Shown here piece by piece: positions 21,357 to 29,239 of a stretch of 64,000 nucleotides of DNA. Origin of the DNA: Thermoproteota archaeon (lineage in GTDB: Archaea > Asgardarchaeota > Njordarchaeia > Njordarchaeales > Panguiarchaeaceae); assembly GCA_024720975.1 (NCBI GenBank), contig JANJXX010000001.1:80970-144969 (forward strand), in the 5' to 3' direction. Below the pieces are notes generated by a model. That model saw nothing but the letters and a program-made list of their open reading frames with translations. It was not told the origin of the DNA and searched no databases. Made by a program: the position numbers and the translations under genes. Numbering within the stretch: the stretch's first letter is position 1; the number at the start of each line of letters is the position of its first letter.

Positions 21357-22763
21357 CTAAACTCTCCAAAAGTCCTCCCAGTATTCCCTTGGGAATAATT
21401 TTCCTGGGTTGAGGATGCCATTTGGGTCAAAAAGTTTCTTCATCTCCCACATTAAGTCTAATTTTTCTTTTCCCGCTTCCACCTTAAATACATCTACTTT
21501 TTCAAGACCAATTCCGTGTTCGCCTGATACTGTTCCGCCAAGCTTTATTGTTTCTATAGATATCTCCTTAGCAGCCTTAAGCACCTTCTCAAATTCGTCC
21601 TTATTCAACGGGTCGTATAATATGTTAGGATGAAGGTTACCATCCCCTGCATGCCCAAATGTTGCTATTATGAGATCATATTTGGCAGCAACTCTTTTAC
21701 AAATATCTACGAGCTCTGGAAGCTTTGATATAGGTACTGTAGGATCTAGGACTAAATACTTGGGCTTTATATTACTCAACGATGGAGCAGCAGCTTTTCT
21801 TGCCATCCAAATCTTTTGATACTCTTCTTCAGTTTTGCTCCAGGTTATATCTATTGCACCCTCATTTCTTAACATATCCAAAATCATGTCCAGTCTTTTC
21901 TCAATATCTTCTTTCACATTACCGGTAAGTTCTATTAGTAGCATAGCATTTCCTTTATATTCAAGTCCACTATAGCGCTTAACTGCTTCTAATGTGTCAC
22001 GATCTAAAAATTCGATGGCCGTAGGATCAAGACCTGTTTTCAGTAGTTTTACCACGAACTCAGCCGCCTCTCTTTCATGACTAAAGTATGCACGAATAAC
22101 AACTGCACGTTTTGGTTTTGCAACTAGCTTAAGAGTTGCTTTGGTTATCACCCCGAGTGTGCCTTCGGAACCTATAAAGAGCCCAGTTAGGTTATAACCC
22201 GCCGCCGCTTTAAATGTCCGTGTTCCGGTCTCAATAATAGATCCTCTTGGTAACACAACTTCTAATGAGAGAACCCACCCATCCCTCATACATCCGTATT
22301 TCACGGCCTTTATCCCTCCAGCATTACCTGCTATTGCCCCGCCAATGGTCGCAGCTGCAGAGCTACCCGGATCTATTGGAAAGATCAGATCGAATTTGTT
22401 TAAATTTATATTCAACTCATCAATTGCTATCCCAGCTTCCACGCGGGCTTGCAGATCCTGTGGGACTACGTCTATGATTCTATTCATTCTGTACATGGAG
22501 ATGACTACAGCATTTTCAATTAAAGGAATGGCTCCCCCGCTAAGGGAGGTTCCACCCCCCCTCACATACGTTGGTATTTTATGCTTTGATGCGTATATCA
22601 AATACTCTCTTATCTGATCCGCGTTTTGGGGAAATACTACAGCTAATGGAATTTCGCCTTTTATTGGTTGTGCATCATACGCATAGTACTCTAAGATCTC
22701 CTTTTCTGTTAATATGTTTGAAGAACCAAAAACGTCGGATAAGAATTTGATTATGTTATCCAA
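21357..22763 (-). CDS. FAD-linked oxidase, GlcD / D-lactate dehydrogenase family
   Basis: 468 aa with an FAD-binding PCMH-type N-terminal half (VRGGGTSLSGGAIP, GSSAAATIGGAIAGNAGG) and C-terminal GTVSGEHGIG. Confidence 0.85.
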   Translation of the reverse strand: MDNIIKFLSDVFGSSNILTEKEILEYYAYDAQPIKGEIPLAVVFPQNADQIREYLIYASKHKIPTYVRGGGTSLSGGAIPLIENAVVISMYRMNRIIDVVPQDLQARVEAGIAIDELNINLNKFDLIFPIDPGSSAAATIGGAIAGNAGGIKAVKYGCMRDGWVLSLEVVLPRGSIIETGTRTFKAAAGYNLTGLFIGSEGTLGVITKATLKLVAKPKRAVVIRAYFSHEREAAEFVVKLLKTGLDPTAIEFLDRDTLEAVKRYSGLEYKGNAMLLIELTGNVKEDIEKRLDMILDMLRNEGAIDITWSKTEEEYQKIWMARKAAAPSLSNIKPKYLVLDPTVPISKLPELVDICKRVAAKYDLIIATFGHAGDGNLHPNILYDPLNKDEFEKVLKAAKEISIETIKLGGTVSGEHGIGLEKVDVFKVEAGKEKLDLMWEMKKLFDPNGILNPGKLFPREYWEDFWRV

Positions 22764-23878: not shown

Positions 23879-24232
23879 TCATGATGTTACAGTTTCTATT
23901 TCAATGTCAAAATCTTTCGTTCCAAGAAGATCTGAAAATATTTTCTCCACAAGTTCTGGTGCGCTCTCACCAGTTATCTCCACAGTCTGCTGAACTACAT
24001 CTCCCTGTAGTCCCTCCACGATTGAACTGACTTTAGCCAACTGCTCGTCAGTAAGTTCCCCTTCAATTTTAAGAAGTACTTTGCCTGCCTCGCCAGTGGC
24101 TTCCAAGACAATTTCGATTTTCCCAGTTTTCTTCTCGTAGATACTGCAAAATGATCCTAAGCCCGCCGATAGAACCTCTAGCACCGCATTCTTAATCAAA
24201 GCTTTCCTTGTTTCTGGATCCAAGAGGCTCAC
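23879..24232 (-). CDS. Small acidic hypothetical protein
   Basis: 117-aa ORF in the same orientation as its flanking genes. No motif recognised. Confidence 0.45.
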   Translation of the reverse strand: MSLLDPETRKALIKNAVLEVLSAGLGSFCSIYEKKTGKIEIVLEATGEAGKVLLKIEGELTDEQLAKVSSIVEGLQGDVVQQTVEITGESAPELVEKIFSDLLGTKDFDIEIETVTS

Positions 24233-24276: not shown

Positions 24277-24591
24277 TTAAACGACTGCTGCTGAGGCGTC
24301 TTGCGCAAGTACCTGGTTGCGCAGTACTTTTATGGTCTCAGTTATTTTTATCTTGGCTGGGCAGCGAACATCACAACTTCCGCAAAGATTGCAGATGAAT
24401 ATTAGGTATTTGAGAAAACTTGGAAGTTCGGTGTTCTTTAGTAGCGCCTCTCGCGAGAGTATTATTACTGATCTGGGAGAGAAGTGATCATAGCGAGTAC
24501 TTCCAATGAACATTGGACAGCCAGATATGCATAGGTTACACTGAGAACATCTTAGCATTTCGCGGAGTAGAGAATCTTTCCGCTTTACCAC
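24277..24591 (-). CDS. Dicluster 4Fe-4S ferredoxin-like protein (HdrC/GlcF N-domain type)
   Basis: Two CxxCxxCxxxCP motifs, CSQCNLCISGCP and CNLCGSCDVRCP, separated by about 45 aa. Its start abuts the stop of the upstream gene (24591/24592). Confidence 0.7.
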   Translation of the reverse strand: MVKRKDSLLREMLRCSQCNLCISGCPMFIGSTRYDHFSPRSVIILSREALLKNTELPSFLKYLIFICNLCGSCDVRCPAKIKITETIKVLRNQVLAQDASAAVV

Positions 24592-25374
24592 TCAATACAC
24601 CAAGCATTCTAGTTCAAAATCAAATTTAAGCGAAGATCTTATCTGCTGCTGCACATTTTTATCCTTGCAAACTATGGACATGAATTTTTTTCGTTCACTT
24701 TCAGAAGATCTGTTGATTATTTCTAGTAAAGGATCTCTAAGTCTATTGACGACCTGATTAAGAAAATCATTGTCTACTTTGCTAAGAGTCCTAAGAAGCC
24801 ATGCTAACTTCACTGAATCGACACCTTGATTTATAAAGGTATCGACCAAGCCATCAAAGATTTGCCAGGCCAATTTTCTGTAGCCAAGTTTAGCTATGTA
24901 GAGTACAACTTGACTTAGATGCGATATTCCCTCGTTCTTGCTTAAGTTGAGGAATACTTTTGAATAGTTCCTTACAAATATTACTCCAAGCTCCTCATTC
25001 ACTCTTGCGATCTCTATTGCCAGTTGTATTACATCATTAAAGTGTCTCTTGATGAGTCTACTACTCAATGGTTCCCTAAATAAATCTATGAACTTCGTAA
25101 AGCACTCGGGACAAATGTAGGCTAGATGTAGTAATAGTAACTTGAGCCTGTTATAACCAGCTTGAAGTATTACATCATTGATTTTACTTGCGAGCTGACT
25201 GGTTAATATATTGAAACCTTCGGCTCCAATTGAGGCCATTTCAAAGATTAATTCTACTTTGCTGCTTACAGGTATTGGTTTACTTAGGATACTGCGAAAC
25301 AAAATCAGGAGTTTGTTTACAGGTAATTCTTTTCGACTCGCTTTATGCAGCGCAATACTTAGCAGGGTATTCAT
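24592..25374 (-). CDS. Alpha-helical repeat protein, function unknown, divergent from the small GTPase gene
   Basis: 260-aa all-helical ORF directly abutting the ferredoxin-like gene. It shares a 98-bp divergent intergenic region with the GTPase gene. Confidence 0.55.
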   Translation of the reverse strand: MNTLLSIALHKASRKELPVNKLLILFRSILSKPIPVSSKVELIFEMASIGAEGFNILTSQLASKINDVILQAGYNRLKLLLLHLAYICPECFTKFIDLFREPLSSRLIKRHFNDVIQLAIEIARVNEELGVIFVRNYSKVFLNLSKNEGISHLSQVVLYIAKLGYRKLAWQIFDGLVDTFINQGVDSVKLAWLLRTLSKVDNDFLNQVVNRLRDPLLEIINRSSESERKKFMSIVCKDKNVQQQIRSSLKFDFELECLVY

Positions 25375-25472
25375 TACAGTGCCCCTTCGGTTTTTGAGTT
25401 AAAGCCTATCAAAAGGCTAACACATGAAGACGTAGTTAATTAAAGACAGCTATTGAAATTTAATTAAAATGT

Positions 25473-26114
25473 TTGAAAACCGTAGGGGGCTCTCCTTTGA
25501 ATAAGATAAAGCATTTTACCTTCAAAGTAGTGGTAATTGGCGATGAAAAAGTAGGCAAAACGACTCTGTGCAAGAACTTCCTTTGGGGAATATCTCAACA
25601 TGAGTACAAAAGCGCGATGGGAGCAGATTTTTATATGTACCCCTGGTATTCCTACCTCGATGAGCTCAAAACGAAATTGCATGTAAGATGGTTACTATTT
25701 GACTTAACTGGTCAATTTTTTGAGTTCCAGACAATTCGACCACTGTTTTATAGAGGTGCGCATGCAGCCATTATTGTCTTCGATATCTCAAGACCAGAAA
25801 CATTCAAATCTATCCCAGTGTGGATATATGAATTTTGGCGAGACTCTTCTCCAGGTGCTGTTGAAAAAAGGCCATTTATAATTGCTGGCAACAAGGCTGA
25901 TCTACGGGGGACGGTAGAGAATTGCCTACCTCGAGAACTTGCGGAGGATTATGTTAAACGAGTAGCAAAGGGTTTGAATTTCGAGCCTGCCTATGTTGAA
26001 GTATCAGTTTTGCATGGCTGGAACACTGAAGACTTACTCAAAAAGCTTCTGATAGCTATATTAAAGTATTATGGATACACAGATATGCTATTGAAGACCA
26101 GCGGGGAGAAGTAA
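25473..26114 (+). CDS. Ras-superfamily (Rab/Ras-like) small GTPase
   Basis: G1 GDEKVGKTTL, G3 DLTGQ, G4 NKAD and a G5-like EVSVL are present in canonical order and spacing. The switch I region reads YKSAMGADF against the Rab pattern Y-x-S-T-I-G-x-D-F. An alternative in-frame TTG start at 25497 gives MNKIKHFTFKVVVIGD. Confidence 0.8.
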   Translation: MKTVGGSPLNKIKHFTFKVVVIGDEKVGKTTLCKNFLWGISQHEYKSAMGADFYMYPWYSYLDELKTKLHVRWLLFDLTGQFFEFQTIRPLFYRGAHAAIIVFDISRPETFKSIPVWIYEFWRDSSPGAVEKRPFIIAGNKADLRGTVENCLPRELAEDYVKRVAKGLNFEPAYVEVSVLHGWNTEDLLKKLLIAILKYYGYTDMLLKTSGEK

Positions 26115-27388
26115 TGACTAAAGTTTCTATTCCATACGGAAGCCAAGTAATTCAGTTAGAAATCCCAGATGATAATTTTCTAATGAATGCCATACCGAAA
26201 GAAATTCCTGGAATACCAAATCCCTCAATCGAACTCGAGAAATCCCTCGAGAAACCGATAAAAACCCGGCCTCTCCGAGAGTTAGCAAAAGGAAAAAGAA
26301 AAGTTGTCATCGTTGTTGACGATGCAACTAGGCCTCTTCCCTCTCACCTCTTACTCCCAACGATTCTCAATGAATTACAAAACGCAGGGGTTCGCCAAGA
26401 TGGCATTACAATACTCTTTGCAACTGGGCTCCATAGACCTGTTACTGAGGAGGAGGCAAAACGCTTACTTGGTGAGGACATAGCTGAAAGGTATAGGTGG
26501 TTAAGCCATAACGCTGATGCTGAGGATTTAGTATACTATGGAGAGACAAAGAGAGGAACACCCATATATATTAATCGATTGTATGCTGAAGCTGATCTGA
26601 GGATACTTGTGGGAGATGTTACATTACATTATTATGCTGGATTCGGCGGCGGTGGGAAATCCATTTTGCCAGGGATATCTGGTCGTGAGACAATAATTAG
26701 AAATCATTCAATGTTGTTCCAACCAAATGCAAGACCGGGAATATGCGAAGGAAATCCTGTTTGTGAAGATATCTCTGAAGCAGCTAAGAAAGTTGGGGCG
26801 GATTTTGTTATTAATGTCGTCCTAAATACGCGTAAGGAGATTGTTAGGATTTTTGCTGGTGAATTGGAAGATGTCTTCAAAAAAGGCATAGAACTTGTTA
26901 GACGCATGTACATTGTCGATGTACCACAAAAAGCCGACATTACAATAGTCAGTCCCGGAGGGCATCCATTCGACATAAATCTCTATCAATCGCATAAGGG
27001 ACTTTTCTTTGCCGAACAAGCTACGAGGGACAATGGATCAATTATTTTGCTTGCAGCTTGCCCAGAGGGTGCTGGTAATAAATTGTTCGAGGATAGTATG
27101 CGAGCAACTAAGAACCTAGCTCCTGATGCTGCCATGAAGATGCTAATGGATGAGCTCTGCAGAAGCTTTTCTGTGGGGATACATAAGGCTTATTATTTGA
27201 TAAGAGCTACGAGCAGGTATAGCATTTTCATAAAGACTGAGATGGATTCGAGGGAGATCTCTGAGATATATAGAATGACCCCTATTAGCGACCCACAGGC
27301 AACTTTAGATGAACTACTTCGAAGAAACCCAGAGGCGAAAGTACTGGTATTGCCGTATGGAAATGAAACGTTGCCTATAGTTAAGTGA
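26114..27388 (+). CDS. larA: LarA-family nickel-pincer-nucleotide-dependent 2-hydroxyacid racemase/epimerase
   Basis: 424 aa and collinear with remembered L. plantarum LarA. The equivalents of the catalytic and cofactor residues are present (ATGLHRP, LHYYAGFGGGGKSILPG, RNHS). The ATG overlaps the GTPase stop (TAATG). Confidence 0.8.
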   Translation: MTKVSIPYGSQVIQLEIPDDNFLMNAIPKEIPGIPNPSIELEKSLEKPIKTRPLRELAKGKRKVVIVVDDATRPLPSHLLLPTILNELQNAGVRQDGITILFATGLHRPVTEEEAKRLLGEDIAERYRWLSHNADAEDLVYYGETKRGTPIYINRLYAEADLRILVGDVTLHYYAGFGGGGKSILPGISGRETIIRNHSMLFQPNARPGICEGNPVCEDISEAAKKVGADFVINVVLNTRKEIVRIFAGELEDVFKKGIELVRRMYIVDVPQKADITIVSPGGHPFDINLYQSHKGLFFAEQATRDNGSIILLAACPEGAGNKLFEDSMRATKNLAPDAAMKMLMDELCRSFSVGIHKAYYLIRATSRYSIFIKTEMDSREISEIYRMTPISDPQATLDELLRRNPEAKVLVLPYGNETLPIVK

Positions 27389-27391
27389 TTT

Positions 27392-28390
27392 CTATAAGTA
27401 GTCGCTACGATCTACCACATTTTTCGGCTTCTCCCCTCTAATGTACTTGATAATGTTTTCTAAGGCTGCTATTAGGACCCTATCTCTTATTTCGGGTGCA
27501 AAGCCAGCTATATGAGGGGTCATTATAACATTAGGAAGCTCATGAAATGGGTAATCTTGATACGCTGGCTCTAAGTCCTTTGACGGATACCGCCACCAAA
27601 CATCAAGACATGCAACGAAATTCGGATTATCTCTTAAATGCTCGTATAAAGCTTTTTGATCTATTACCTCGCCGCGACTTACATTAACTAGGATTGCAGT
27701 TGACTTCATCAAATTAAGTTCCCTCTTTCCAATCATACCGCGTGTGTACTTTGTTAAGGGAACGGCTACAACGACAACATCTGAATTCTGGAGCACTATG
27801 TCTAATTTGTCTGGAGTACCAATGAAATCTACATTCACGTCAGCCACTCCAGAGCGATTGATTGCAAAGACGCGCATTCCAAAAGCTTTAGCTATTCTCG
27901 CCACACTTTGCCCAACATTTCCGAGTCCAATAATACCCATAGTCTTATTCTGCAAGACAAATCCGTAATCTCTGCGTTTCCAAATGCCCTTTCTCATATT
28001 TTGGTCGTGATAAATGATCTTTTTAGCAGCAGCCAATATCATAGCCCAAACATGCTCAGCGACAGCAATAGCATTTGCACCTGCATTTGTGCATACCAAA
28101 ACTTTTTCCGGCAAGCTGTGAAACGGTATATAATCTGCTCCTGCAGACAATGTTTGTATGAGCTTGAGATTTCTTGTATCTCTCAATATTTCCTGTGTCA
28201 GATCTAAGCCACTTCCGGTGAGAATTACGTCTACCTCTGGTAGCAATCTTTCTAATTGCTCTGCACTTAATTCATCGATAAAGTGCACTTCGGCATGCTT
28301 ACTCAGAATTGAGGTGATGATCTCCTTATCTTCAGGTCTAGCCTTAAACGTTACTAATACTCTCAAGTTAACCTCCTGATTAGAGTCCAT
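27392..28390 (-). CDS. D-isomer-specific 2-hydroxyacid dehydrogenase (NAD-binding)
   Basis: GIIGLGNVGQSVARIAKAFGMRV Rossmann motif, then the catalytic region VNVSRGEVID ... MTPHIAG. Confidence 0.85.
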   Translation of the reverse strand: MDSNQEVNLRVLVTFKARPEDKEIITSILSKHAEVHFIDELSAEQLERLLPEVDVILTGSGLDLTQEILRDTRNLKLIQTLSAGADYIPFHSLPEKVLVCTNAGANAIAVAEHVWAMILAAAKKIIYHDQNMRKGIWKRRDYGFVLQNKTMGIIGLGNVGQSVARIAKAFGMRVFAINRSGVADVNVDFIGTPDKLDIVLQNSDVVVVAVPLTKYTRGMIGKRELNLMKSTAILVNVSRGEVIDQKALYEHLRDNPNFVACLDVWWRYPSKDLEPAYQDYPFHELPNVIMTPHIAGFAPEIRDRVLIAALENIIKYIRGEKPKNVVDRSDYL

Positions 28391-28432: not shown

Positions 28433-29239
28433 ATGAACCCAGAAATTACCATAAAAGTTGAGCAATACTTAAAGCATGTGGAAAAACTAGTGAAGACAAT
28501 TCTTGGGGAAAACTTAGTAAGTTTAGTTGTATTCGGCTCATTTGTGAGAGGTGAGTTATCTAAGTCATCTGATATTGATATTTTAATTGCTGTTAAGGAC
28601 CGTATTCATCCGAGCGTAGCCGAGTTAATGAGAAAGTTATATGCTCTCGAGCAAAAGTATGGATTCTCATTCTGTCCTAAGGGCTTCTTTGGTAGACTCT
28701 TCTATTCACTAAGCAGAGCGACTGGCATGTTTAGATCCATATTCATAGCCGAAGCGAAAGCAATAAAGAACTGGGAATTCTCGAAAGTCTTCAACACGAG
28801 TGTATTTATGACTCGTTTGCTAGCGCCAAAAGAAGCTGTTAAGTTCACGATTTTGAGCGCATATAAAGTTATCTACGGATCAGATCCATTTAAGGACTTG
28901 AGTATAAAGGAACCAAATCATGTAGAGATTATTAAGAGTCTCCTAATGAATCTACTGCTGGCGTTGGCATCGTTTGTGCTTCTCCCACTACATAGGGAGA
29001 CATACAAGTTTATTTATGAGGCAGTGAAATGGTCTTTGTTTTGCTATGCATATTCAACTCAACGAAAGCCAGTGATCAATGAACTCTTAAAGACTTTTTA
29101 CAAAAAGTCGAAAAGAGATGTTGAAGGTTTTATTGCAACCCGTAAGAATAATAAACTCGACTCTAGTTTGCTCTTGTATGGTATACCTATGATTATTAAA
29201 ATCCATATTCAATCTCTTAAGGAACTAAAGCAGAGATAA
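28433..29239 (+). CDS. Nucleotidyltransferase (Pol-beta/MNT-type) domain protein with a helical C-terminal extension
   Basis: VVFGSFVRGELSKSSDIDILIAV matches the G-S ... D-x-D minimal NTase motif. Confidence 0.65.
   Translation: MNPEITIKVEQYLKHVEKLVKTILGENLVSLVVFGSFVRGELSKSSDIDILIAVKDRIHPSVAELMRKLYALEQKYGFSFCPKGFFGRLFYSLSRATGMFRSIFIAEAKAIKNWEFSKVFNTSVFMTRLLAPKEAVKFTILSAYKVIYGSDPFKDLSIKEPNHVEIIKSLLMNLLLALASFVLLPLHRETYKFIYEAVKWSLFCYAYSTQRKPVINELLKTFYKKSKRDVEGFIATRKNNKLDSSLLLYGIPMIIKIHIQSLKELKQR

Follow-up and report, generated by a model that had tools for sequence, protein, structure and literature searches.

Almost nothing is known of what the many Asgard small GTPases do, and their partners can rarely be deduced from genome layout (PMC10933270). 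For MK-D1 it is reported that small GTPase genes generally do not share operons with those for Roadblock, longin or TRAPPC3 (PMC10933270). Homologs of the nickel-pincer nucleotide (NPN) enzyme LarA occur in 87.5% of Asgardarchaeota species (PMC11770544). Here we describe a locus at which genes of these two kinds meet. In a stretch of 64,000 nucleotides from an Asgard archaeal genome (positions 80,970 to 144,969 of contig JANJXX010000001.1, assembly GCA_024720975.1; hereafter the window, whose own numbering is used throughout), a gene for a Rab-like small GTPase shares one base with the gene for a LarA-family racemase homolog. A conserved operonic link to enzymes would supply a concrete, testable partner for such a GTPase. 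With a probability of about 0.55, we read the two genes as a probably co-transcribed neighbor pair inherited within one genus, with an unproven functional link and with a degenerate GTPase copy in the species of the window.

The window belongs to a metagenome-assembled genome (MAG) of the Njordarchaeota type, which comprises 1.36 Mb in 29 contigs and is 81% complete. The records of its congeners bear the name Candidatus Njordarchaeota or, in MAGs with a mistaken label, "Nitrososphaerota", and related contigs are found in several metagenome records.

Comparison with described GTPases and racemases

The window GTPase has a Ras-family G domain whose best described matches are a Thorarchaeota Rab and Rab7. 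It scores above cut-off against the Pfam families Ras (PF00071; 85 bits, cut-off 21.6) and Roc (67.9 bits, cut-off 27), and against TIGR00231 (54.1 bits, cut-off 42.5). A profile of its orthologs retrieves the Thorarchaeota Rab (7EZB, E = 9e-34) and Rab7 (E = 1e-33) as the best matches in the PDB, followed by Ypt7, Rab5 and Rab11, and the closest relatives are thus Rabs. The strings GDEKVGKT (G1), DLTGQ (G3, with its Gln) and NKAD (G4) are present in the window copy together with SAMGADF at switch I. The sequence-only reading had assigned the protein to the TRAFAC Ras-like class rather than the SIMIBI class, and the Ras and Roc scores and the Rab structures support that assignment.

Neither the window GTPase, which ends in LLKTSGEK, nor any aligned ortholog has a C-terminal Cys prenylation motif. 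A missing C-terminal Cys is usual among archaeal Rab-like proteins, which the window GTPase resembles in having no lipidation signal. Instead of this Cys the orthologs have in common a conserved C-terminal helix that contains a YYG motif, which sets them apart from the Thorarchaeota Rab and Rab7. The window GTPase further differs from those two in belonging to a long-stemmed clade restricted to one genus, in lacking the switch I Thr, in being non-canonical at the positions of Ras G12, A59 and A146, and in its placement in a predicted operon with metabolic enzymes. Like the MglA and Rup GTPases, whose partners have been inferred from gene neighborhood (PMC4316618), it is a single-domain prokaryotic member of the Ras superfamily. 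Unlike those accompanied by MglB or Roadblock proteins, it has no Roadblock, longin or MglB-like gene next to it, and it scores as a Ras/Rab protein and not as MglA. With the G3E metallochaperones of the SIMIBI class (HypB, UreG, CobW and MeaB) it has in common only the layout, a GTPase gene beside the gene of a metal-cofactor enzyme. It differs from them in its TRAFAC Ras-like class, in the absence of a conserved metal-binding Cys/His motif from the ortholog alignment, and in a pairing limited to one genus. Searches of Pfam and NCBIfam gave no match to CobW, HypB, UreG or ArgK; the P-loop families matched were Ras, Roc, Arf and EF-Tu.

The LarA homolog is similar over its full length to the malate racemase Mar2 (6D6Z, E = 8e-104) and to the lactate racemase LarA (5HUQ, E = 4e-62), and its Pfam domains Lar_N and LarA_C score above their cut-offs, at 230 and 58.7 bits. 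The sequence-only reading had described its catalytic and cofactor-binding residues as kept, and we found the equivalents in place. The protein carries the motifs ATGLHRP, HYYAGFGGGGKS and RNHS, with H107, H172, K182 and H198 corresponding to H108, H174, K184 and H200 of L. plantarum LarA. Both catalytic His residues, the Lys that tethers NPN and the His that ligates Ni are thus retained. These residues are correctly spaced (+10 from His to Lys, +16 from Lys to His) and are conserved in all orthologs of the genus, and Y291, Q292 and K295 are also conserved in the ortholog alignment. We regard the protein as an NPN-type 2-hydroxyacid racemase that probably acts on malate or a related hydroxyacid. 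Its substrate is not assignable because the score against the best LarA-homolog model of NCBIfam, the malate racemase LarAH6 (NF052593), is 465.4 bits and falls below the equivalog cut-off of 500. Apart from this score, the homolog differs from Mar2 and LarA in the GTPase gene upstream of it and in a genus without LarB and LarE.

Both proteins are members of known families. A eukaryote-like small GTPase, which had been singled out as remarkable, is ordinary in an Asgard genome, since all 41 sampled genomes of the phylum contain small GTPase matches (6–47 per genome). The statement that an operon of a GTPase and a nickel-pincer enzyme had not been described holds up. Our literature search found no paper combining LarA, nickel-pincer and GTPase, and a survey of the LarA superfamily makes no mention of a GTPase or of such a neighborhood link (PMC11770544).

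Architecture of the GTPase–LarA locus

The open reading frame (ORF) of the GTPase occupies 25473..26114 on the plus strand and encodes 213 amino acids from its first TTG. Translation probably starts at an in-frame TTG at 25497–25499, which would yield 205 amino acids. We favor this codon because a GGGGG Shine-Dalgarno-like run (25485–25489) lies 7 nt upstream of it, because the GGGGG(G)-N7–8-TTG spacing is kept in two orthologs (in genome G003 and on metagenome contig L088), and because the N-termini of the orthologs line up with it. The ORF of the LarA homolog follows on the same strand (26114..27388, 424 amino acids). As the sequence-only reading had claimed, the two ORFs meet in a TAATG junction, in which the stop codon TAA (26112–26114) and the LarA start codon ATG (26114–26116) have base 26114 in common, and a GGGGAG lies ahead of this ATG inside the 3' end of the GTPase gene (26103–26108). 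The junctions in G003 (TAAgATG) and L088 (TAGaATG) are similarly tight.

The one-base overlap and the absence of an intergenic spacer make it probable that the GTPase and LarA genes are co-transcribed. Upstream, an A/T-rich region of 98 bp (25375..25472) separates the GTPase gene from a divergent gene for an alpha-solenoid protein on the minus strand. This region carries the TATA-like sequences TTAATTAAA and AATTTAATTAAAA and presumably contains the promoters of both divergent genes, from one of which the GTPase and LarA would be transcribed. LarA might then be translated by termination-reinitiation at the TAATG junction, aided by the GGGGAG. Overlaps between stop and start codons are common in this genome, where crude ORF calls gave approximately 174 overlapping pairs among 711 co-directional neighbors and 318 of 711 within 20 nt. 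The TAATG junction is therefore non-specific evidence.

Conservation of the pairing within one genus

The GTPase orthogroup was detected in only five of 400 Asgard genomes, all of one genus (the window's genome G000 and G001–G004; 358–391 bits, next-best at most 215 bits). Within this genus we sampled four GTDB species and about six further metagenome lineages. In all of these roughly ten lineages, the GTPase ortholog adjoins LarA, a D-2-hydroxyacid dehydrogenase, or both, and four arrangements can be distinguished. The GTPase gene is followed by LarA, with the solenoid gene divergent upstream, in the window, G003 and L088. LarA is divergent from a GTPase–dehydrogenase–nucleotidyltransferase series in G001 and L093, and it precedes the same series in the same direction in G002, L095 and L098. 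In G004 the series is intact and LarA lies 3.7 kb off, separated from the GTPase by three unrelated genes (L051:6767–10259), which encode an AAA-type ATPase (431 aa), a membrane protein (184 aa) and a glycosyltransferase-like protein (356 aa). In the maximum-likelihood tree all 11 linked GTPases form one clade (support 99/99) on a stem branch of 1.0. The clade has two subclades, one with the first arrangement and the other with the remaining three. In G002 the GTPase gene overlaps that of the dehydrogenase (ATGA), and a T-rich spacer divides LarA from the GTPase. In most lineages the GTPase is thus coupled to the dehydrogenase and not to LarA.

Outside the genus the pairing was not found. No adjacent GTPase gene was seen at any of 13 loci of orthologous LarA in other genera (39–54% identity, 8 kb covered on either side), nor at any of 26 loci of the best LarA per genome in other Asgard genera (1.5 kb covered on either side). 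Within the genus, the background of conserved gene order has to be considered. Macro-synteny is unusually strong and forms the background for any neighborhood argument made within the genus. Reciprocal best hits on the window genome's contig C11 were obtained for 69 of the 105 genes of G004 contig C3, and the two contigs are roughly collinear, with many small local inversions, despite a protein identity of approximately 50–60%. Of the adjacent pairs, 37 of 62 (60%) are still adjacent in G004, a share that rises to 77% at a distance of up to 4 genes and to 85% at up to 8, and the GTPase–LarA pair is among those no longer adjacent. The conserved block of approximately 11 genes also includes an unrelated GT4 glycosyltransferase, an AmmeMemoRadiSam radical SAM enzyme and the nucleotidyltransferase. 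Because of the 60% background and the unrelated genes in the block, adjacency within the genus is weak evidence for a functional link. The pairing is thus not unique to this genome, as it recurs across the genus and on metagenome contigs; it neither exceeds background synteny nor recurs independently.

In the reading that we prefer, the GTPase is a genus-specific paralog of the Asgard Rab-like GTPases, and its gene opens a two-cistron unit that LarA completes. The unit lies in a 2-hydroxyacid neighborhood, whose other members are the D-2-hydroxyacid dehydrogenase, a small Fe-S protein and an FAD oxidase of the GlcD-like kind. LarA might convert a 2-hydroxyacid between its D and L forms, and the D-specific dehydrogenase would oxidize the D form. 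The juxtaposition of GTPase and LarA would have arisen once in the ancestor of the genus and persisted with local shuffling in a compact genome. A functional link cannot be separated from inherited synteny, since the pairing is known from one genus only and gene order is conserved throughout it.

Several observations weigh against a mere inheritance of neighbors. Despite at least three rearrangements, the GTPase has stayed directly beside LarA and/or the dehydrogenase in all of the roughly ten lineages, and in each of them it leads a pair of closely spaced cistrons that one of these two enzymes completes. Outside the species of the window it ranks with the most conserved genes of the block (83% identity between G003 and L088, level with the radical SAM enzyme and the FAD oxidase), and is therefore under strong constraint there. 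The long stem of its clade would fit a new function gained on joining the locus.

These observations also speak for a dedicated module, in which the GTPase acts as a nucleotide-dependent regulator or scaffold of LarA and/or the dehydrogenase and its GTP state sets their activity, assembly or localization. The tight or overlapping junctions, with LarA in one subclade and with the dehydrogenase in the other, would suit such a module, as would the strong conservation of a genus-specific clade in most of its members. That a second GTPase paralog is coupled to a ThiI-type enzyme in five of five genomes may indicate that this lineage tends to pair GTPases with enzymes, but since ThiI is an unrelated enzyme, the case also supports the reading that we prefer. 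If the module were real, it would point, together with the GTPase–ThiI operon, to an unrecognized control of metabolic enzymes by Ras-superfamily switches in the closest archaeal relatives of eukaryotes. We regard it as possible but doubtful. The retention of the adjacency does not rise above the genome background, Asgard genera with 39–54% identical LarA orthologs do without the pairing, and the pair is split in G004. Moreover, the species of the window tolerates a heavily mutated GTPase while its LarA is normally conserved, and no known GTPase effector or regulator domain is encoded nearby, the solenoid protein and a 117-aa protein being without an informative fold match. It seems rather unlikely that a Rab-like GTPase was recruited as a dedicated regulator or assembly factor of a racemase/dehydrogenase module in a genus that had lost the canonical NPN-cofactor pathway.

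Divergence of the GTPase in the species of the window

The GTPase of the window is the least canonical copy of its orthogroup. We gauged divergence by private substitutions, defined as window residues at positions invariant in the nine other orthologs, and by relative identity, in place of the ratio of nonsynonymous to synonymous substitution rates (dN/dS), because synonymous sites are saturated at approximately 50% amino-acid identity. The window GTPase has 27 private substitutions, and every other ortholog has 0–2. They affect each of G1, G2, G3 and G5. G25E in the P-loop corresponds to the Ras G12 position, T48A in switch I to Ras T35 (YKSAMGADF, compared with TIGAD in 9/9 orthologs), A79T in G3 to Ras A59, and T177V together with A179V alters the SAK motif of G5 around Ras A146 (EVSVL, compared with ETSAL in 9/9 orthologs). 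The window GTPase consequently lacks the switch I Thr of G2 and the SA[KL] of G5, while GK[ST] of G1, DxxGQ of G3 and NKxD of G4 are retained. The sequence-only reading had called G1, G3 and G4 intact; the strings are present as it described, but G1 and G3 each carry a private substitution. Its suspicion that the Mg-binding Thr of switch I is substituted proved correct for this species, although the Thr is kept in all nine orthologs.

The rate of change points in the same direction. The terminal branch of the window GTPase measures 1.14 in the maximum-likelihood tree, compared with approximately 0.12 for its sister copies, and its profile score is the lowest among the five genus orthologs. Its identity to the G003 ortholog is 53%, which is 30 points below the identity between G003 and L088. 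The neighboring genes drop by 1–15 points in the same comparison, with shifts of just 1–8 points for LarA, the dehydrogenase and the radical SAM enzyme (LarA, 71% compared with 72%). The GTPase has evolved approximately three times faster than its neighbors in this species. An identical copy of the sequence is found on metagenome contig L087, which argues against an assembly error.

In Ras, changes at G12, T35, A59 and A146 impair intrinsic hydrolysis and hydrolysis stimulated by GTPase-activating proteins, the sensing of Mg and gamma-phosphate, and nucleotide retention. We infer that switching by the window GTPase is altered or impaired, or that the constraint on it is relaxed. With the switch I Thr lost and the equivalents of Ras G12, A59 and A146 changed, the protein would be at best a nucleotide binder whose hydrolysis and switching are altered or impaired.

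The substitutions in four G motifs, the long terminal branch, the 30-point fall in identity and the low profile score could also mean that the ORF of this species encodes a pseudo-GTPase, or that the gene is in decay and its frame stays open chiefly because the translation of LarA is coupled to it. Against this, the reading frame is fully open, the G1, G3 and G4 signatures are still there, the same sequence recurs on L087, and the faster change could equally be adaptive. We consider this explanation distinctly unlikely.

Apparent absence of NPN-cofactor genes

The genus appears to possess a LarA without the canonical pathway for its cofactor. No LarB was detected in any of the five genus genomes, even with the threshold set at E = 0.001, LarE was found in none of the five above cut-off, and LarC was found in G003 only. 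A tblastn search with LarB, LarE and LarC2 from G005 and with LarC from G003 gave no match in the window's genome. The genes flanking LarC in G003 map to contig C1 of that genome, and LarC was detected nowhere in it. By comparison, the neighboring family (G005) has LarB, LarE and LarC2, and most other Asgard genomes possess such genes as well; LarB was detected in 25 of 41 relatives, with nearly every other Asgard family represented among them. The MAGs of the genus are 75–83% complete, and a chance loss from all five is improbable, at approximately 0.2^5 for independent gaps. That LarA keeps its NPN-binding residues in a genus without LarB and LarE implies that the cofactor is scavenged or made by an unknown route, or that binning has left a systematic gap.

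That the GTPase makes up for the missing LarB, LarC and LarE as a nickel or NPN delivery factor is very improbable: the LarB-bearing relatives do lack this GTPase, but the correlation comes from a single lineage, the Ras fold has none of the chemistry of LarB (a carboxylase/hydrolase), LarE (a sulfur transferase) or LarC (a cyclometallase), the known metallochaperone GTPases are of the SIMIBI G3E type, and no metal-binding Cys/His motif is conserved in the ortholog alignment. We see the orphan LarA and the conserved GTPase–ThiI operon as more promising leads than the GTPase–LarA pair.

Neighboring genes

Downstream of LarA and convergent with it lies the gene for the D-isomer-specific NAD-dependent 2-hydroxyacid dehydrogenase (27392..28390, minus strand; 2-Hacid_dh_C, 181 bits), which in most relatives directly follows the GTPase on the same strand. 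The next gene (28433..29239, plus strand) encodes a protein with a nucleotidyltransferase domain (NTP_transf_2, 35.7 bits; weak, ANT/MntA-like matches in NCBIfam). It comes after the dehydrogenase in all relatives and completes the GTPase–dehydrogenase–nucleotidyltransferase order of the second subclade.

The divergent upstream gene (24592..25374, minus strand) encodes an orphan alpha-solenoid protein of 260 amino acids. It has no match in Pfam or NCBIfam and only three homologs among 5.8 billion proteins. An AlphaFold2 (AF2) model of high confidence (predicted local distance difference test, pLDDT, 91.5) is all-alpha with 18 helices, in agreement with the predicted solenoid. The suggested role as a regulator or effector of the GTPase gained nothing from the model, since the best Foldseek match in the PDB (E = 0.087) is to generic ARM/HEAT or designed repeats, with no informative relative. 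Cys88 and Cys91 of the solenoid protein are invariant and form a CPxC-like motif. The stop codon of its gene abuts the start of a gene for a protein of 104 amino acids with two [4Fe-4S] clusters (24277..24591, minus strand), which is similar to HdrC, LutB and GlcF (Fer4_8, 45.7 bits; weak NCBIfam matches to LutB and HdrC). The order of the two genes is kept in G003, G004 and L088, so the solenoid is coupled to the Fe-S protein rather than to the GTPase. This suggests that the two proteins form a unit.

Further along the minus strand, a gene at 23879–24232 encodes an orphan alpha/beta protein of 117 amino acids, conserved across the genus block. We considered it as a Roadblock or longin regulator and rejected it. 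Its AF2 model (pLDDT 91.8) has the order alpha-beta3-alpha-beta-alpha-beta and matches neither Roadblock nor longin, and the protein has no match in Pfam or NCBIfam and no fold match in the PDB with E < 0.001. A GlcD-like FAD-linked 2-hydroxyacid oxidase/dehydrogenase is encoded at 21357..22763 on the same strand (FAD-oxidase_C, 228 bits; FAD_binding_4, 131 bits). It scores 431 bits against the glcD model, below cut-off, and is a member of the same syntenic block.

Other LarA and small GTPase loci

A parallel pairing in the neighboring genus g3, where a LarA paralog lies approximately 5 kb from a GTPase gene in three genomes, was examined and rejected. The GTPase is three unrelated genes away, beside a giant surface protein, and the LarA paralog has an operon of its own with a PdxA-like dehydrogenase and a four-carbon acid kinase. 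At one such locus (L067:8695–12377; G010:C66) the paralog is approximately 34% identical and is accompanied by proteins that, judged by sequence, are like PdxA dehydrogenases and four-carbon acid sugar kinases. This operon looks like a different pathway with a LarA homolog in the sister family.

Two further small GTPase genes of the window's genome were noted outside the window. A 278-aa protein on contig C27 (21477–22313) has an Arf-like domain (Pfam Arf, 50.8 bits, residues 121–251), preceded by an uncharacterized N-terminal domain of approximately 120 amino acids. On contig C25 (33717–35514), a paralogous Rab-like GTPase of 211 amino acids overlaps by 8 nt the start of a gene for a ThiI-type tRNA sulfurtransferase, which combines THUMP and PP-loop domains (Pfam ThiI, 170 bits). 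The order of GTPase and ThiI is found in all five genus genomes (relatives L099, L107, L109 and L115), and these GTPases form a clade of their own.

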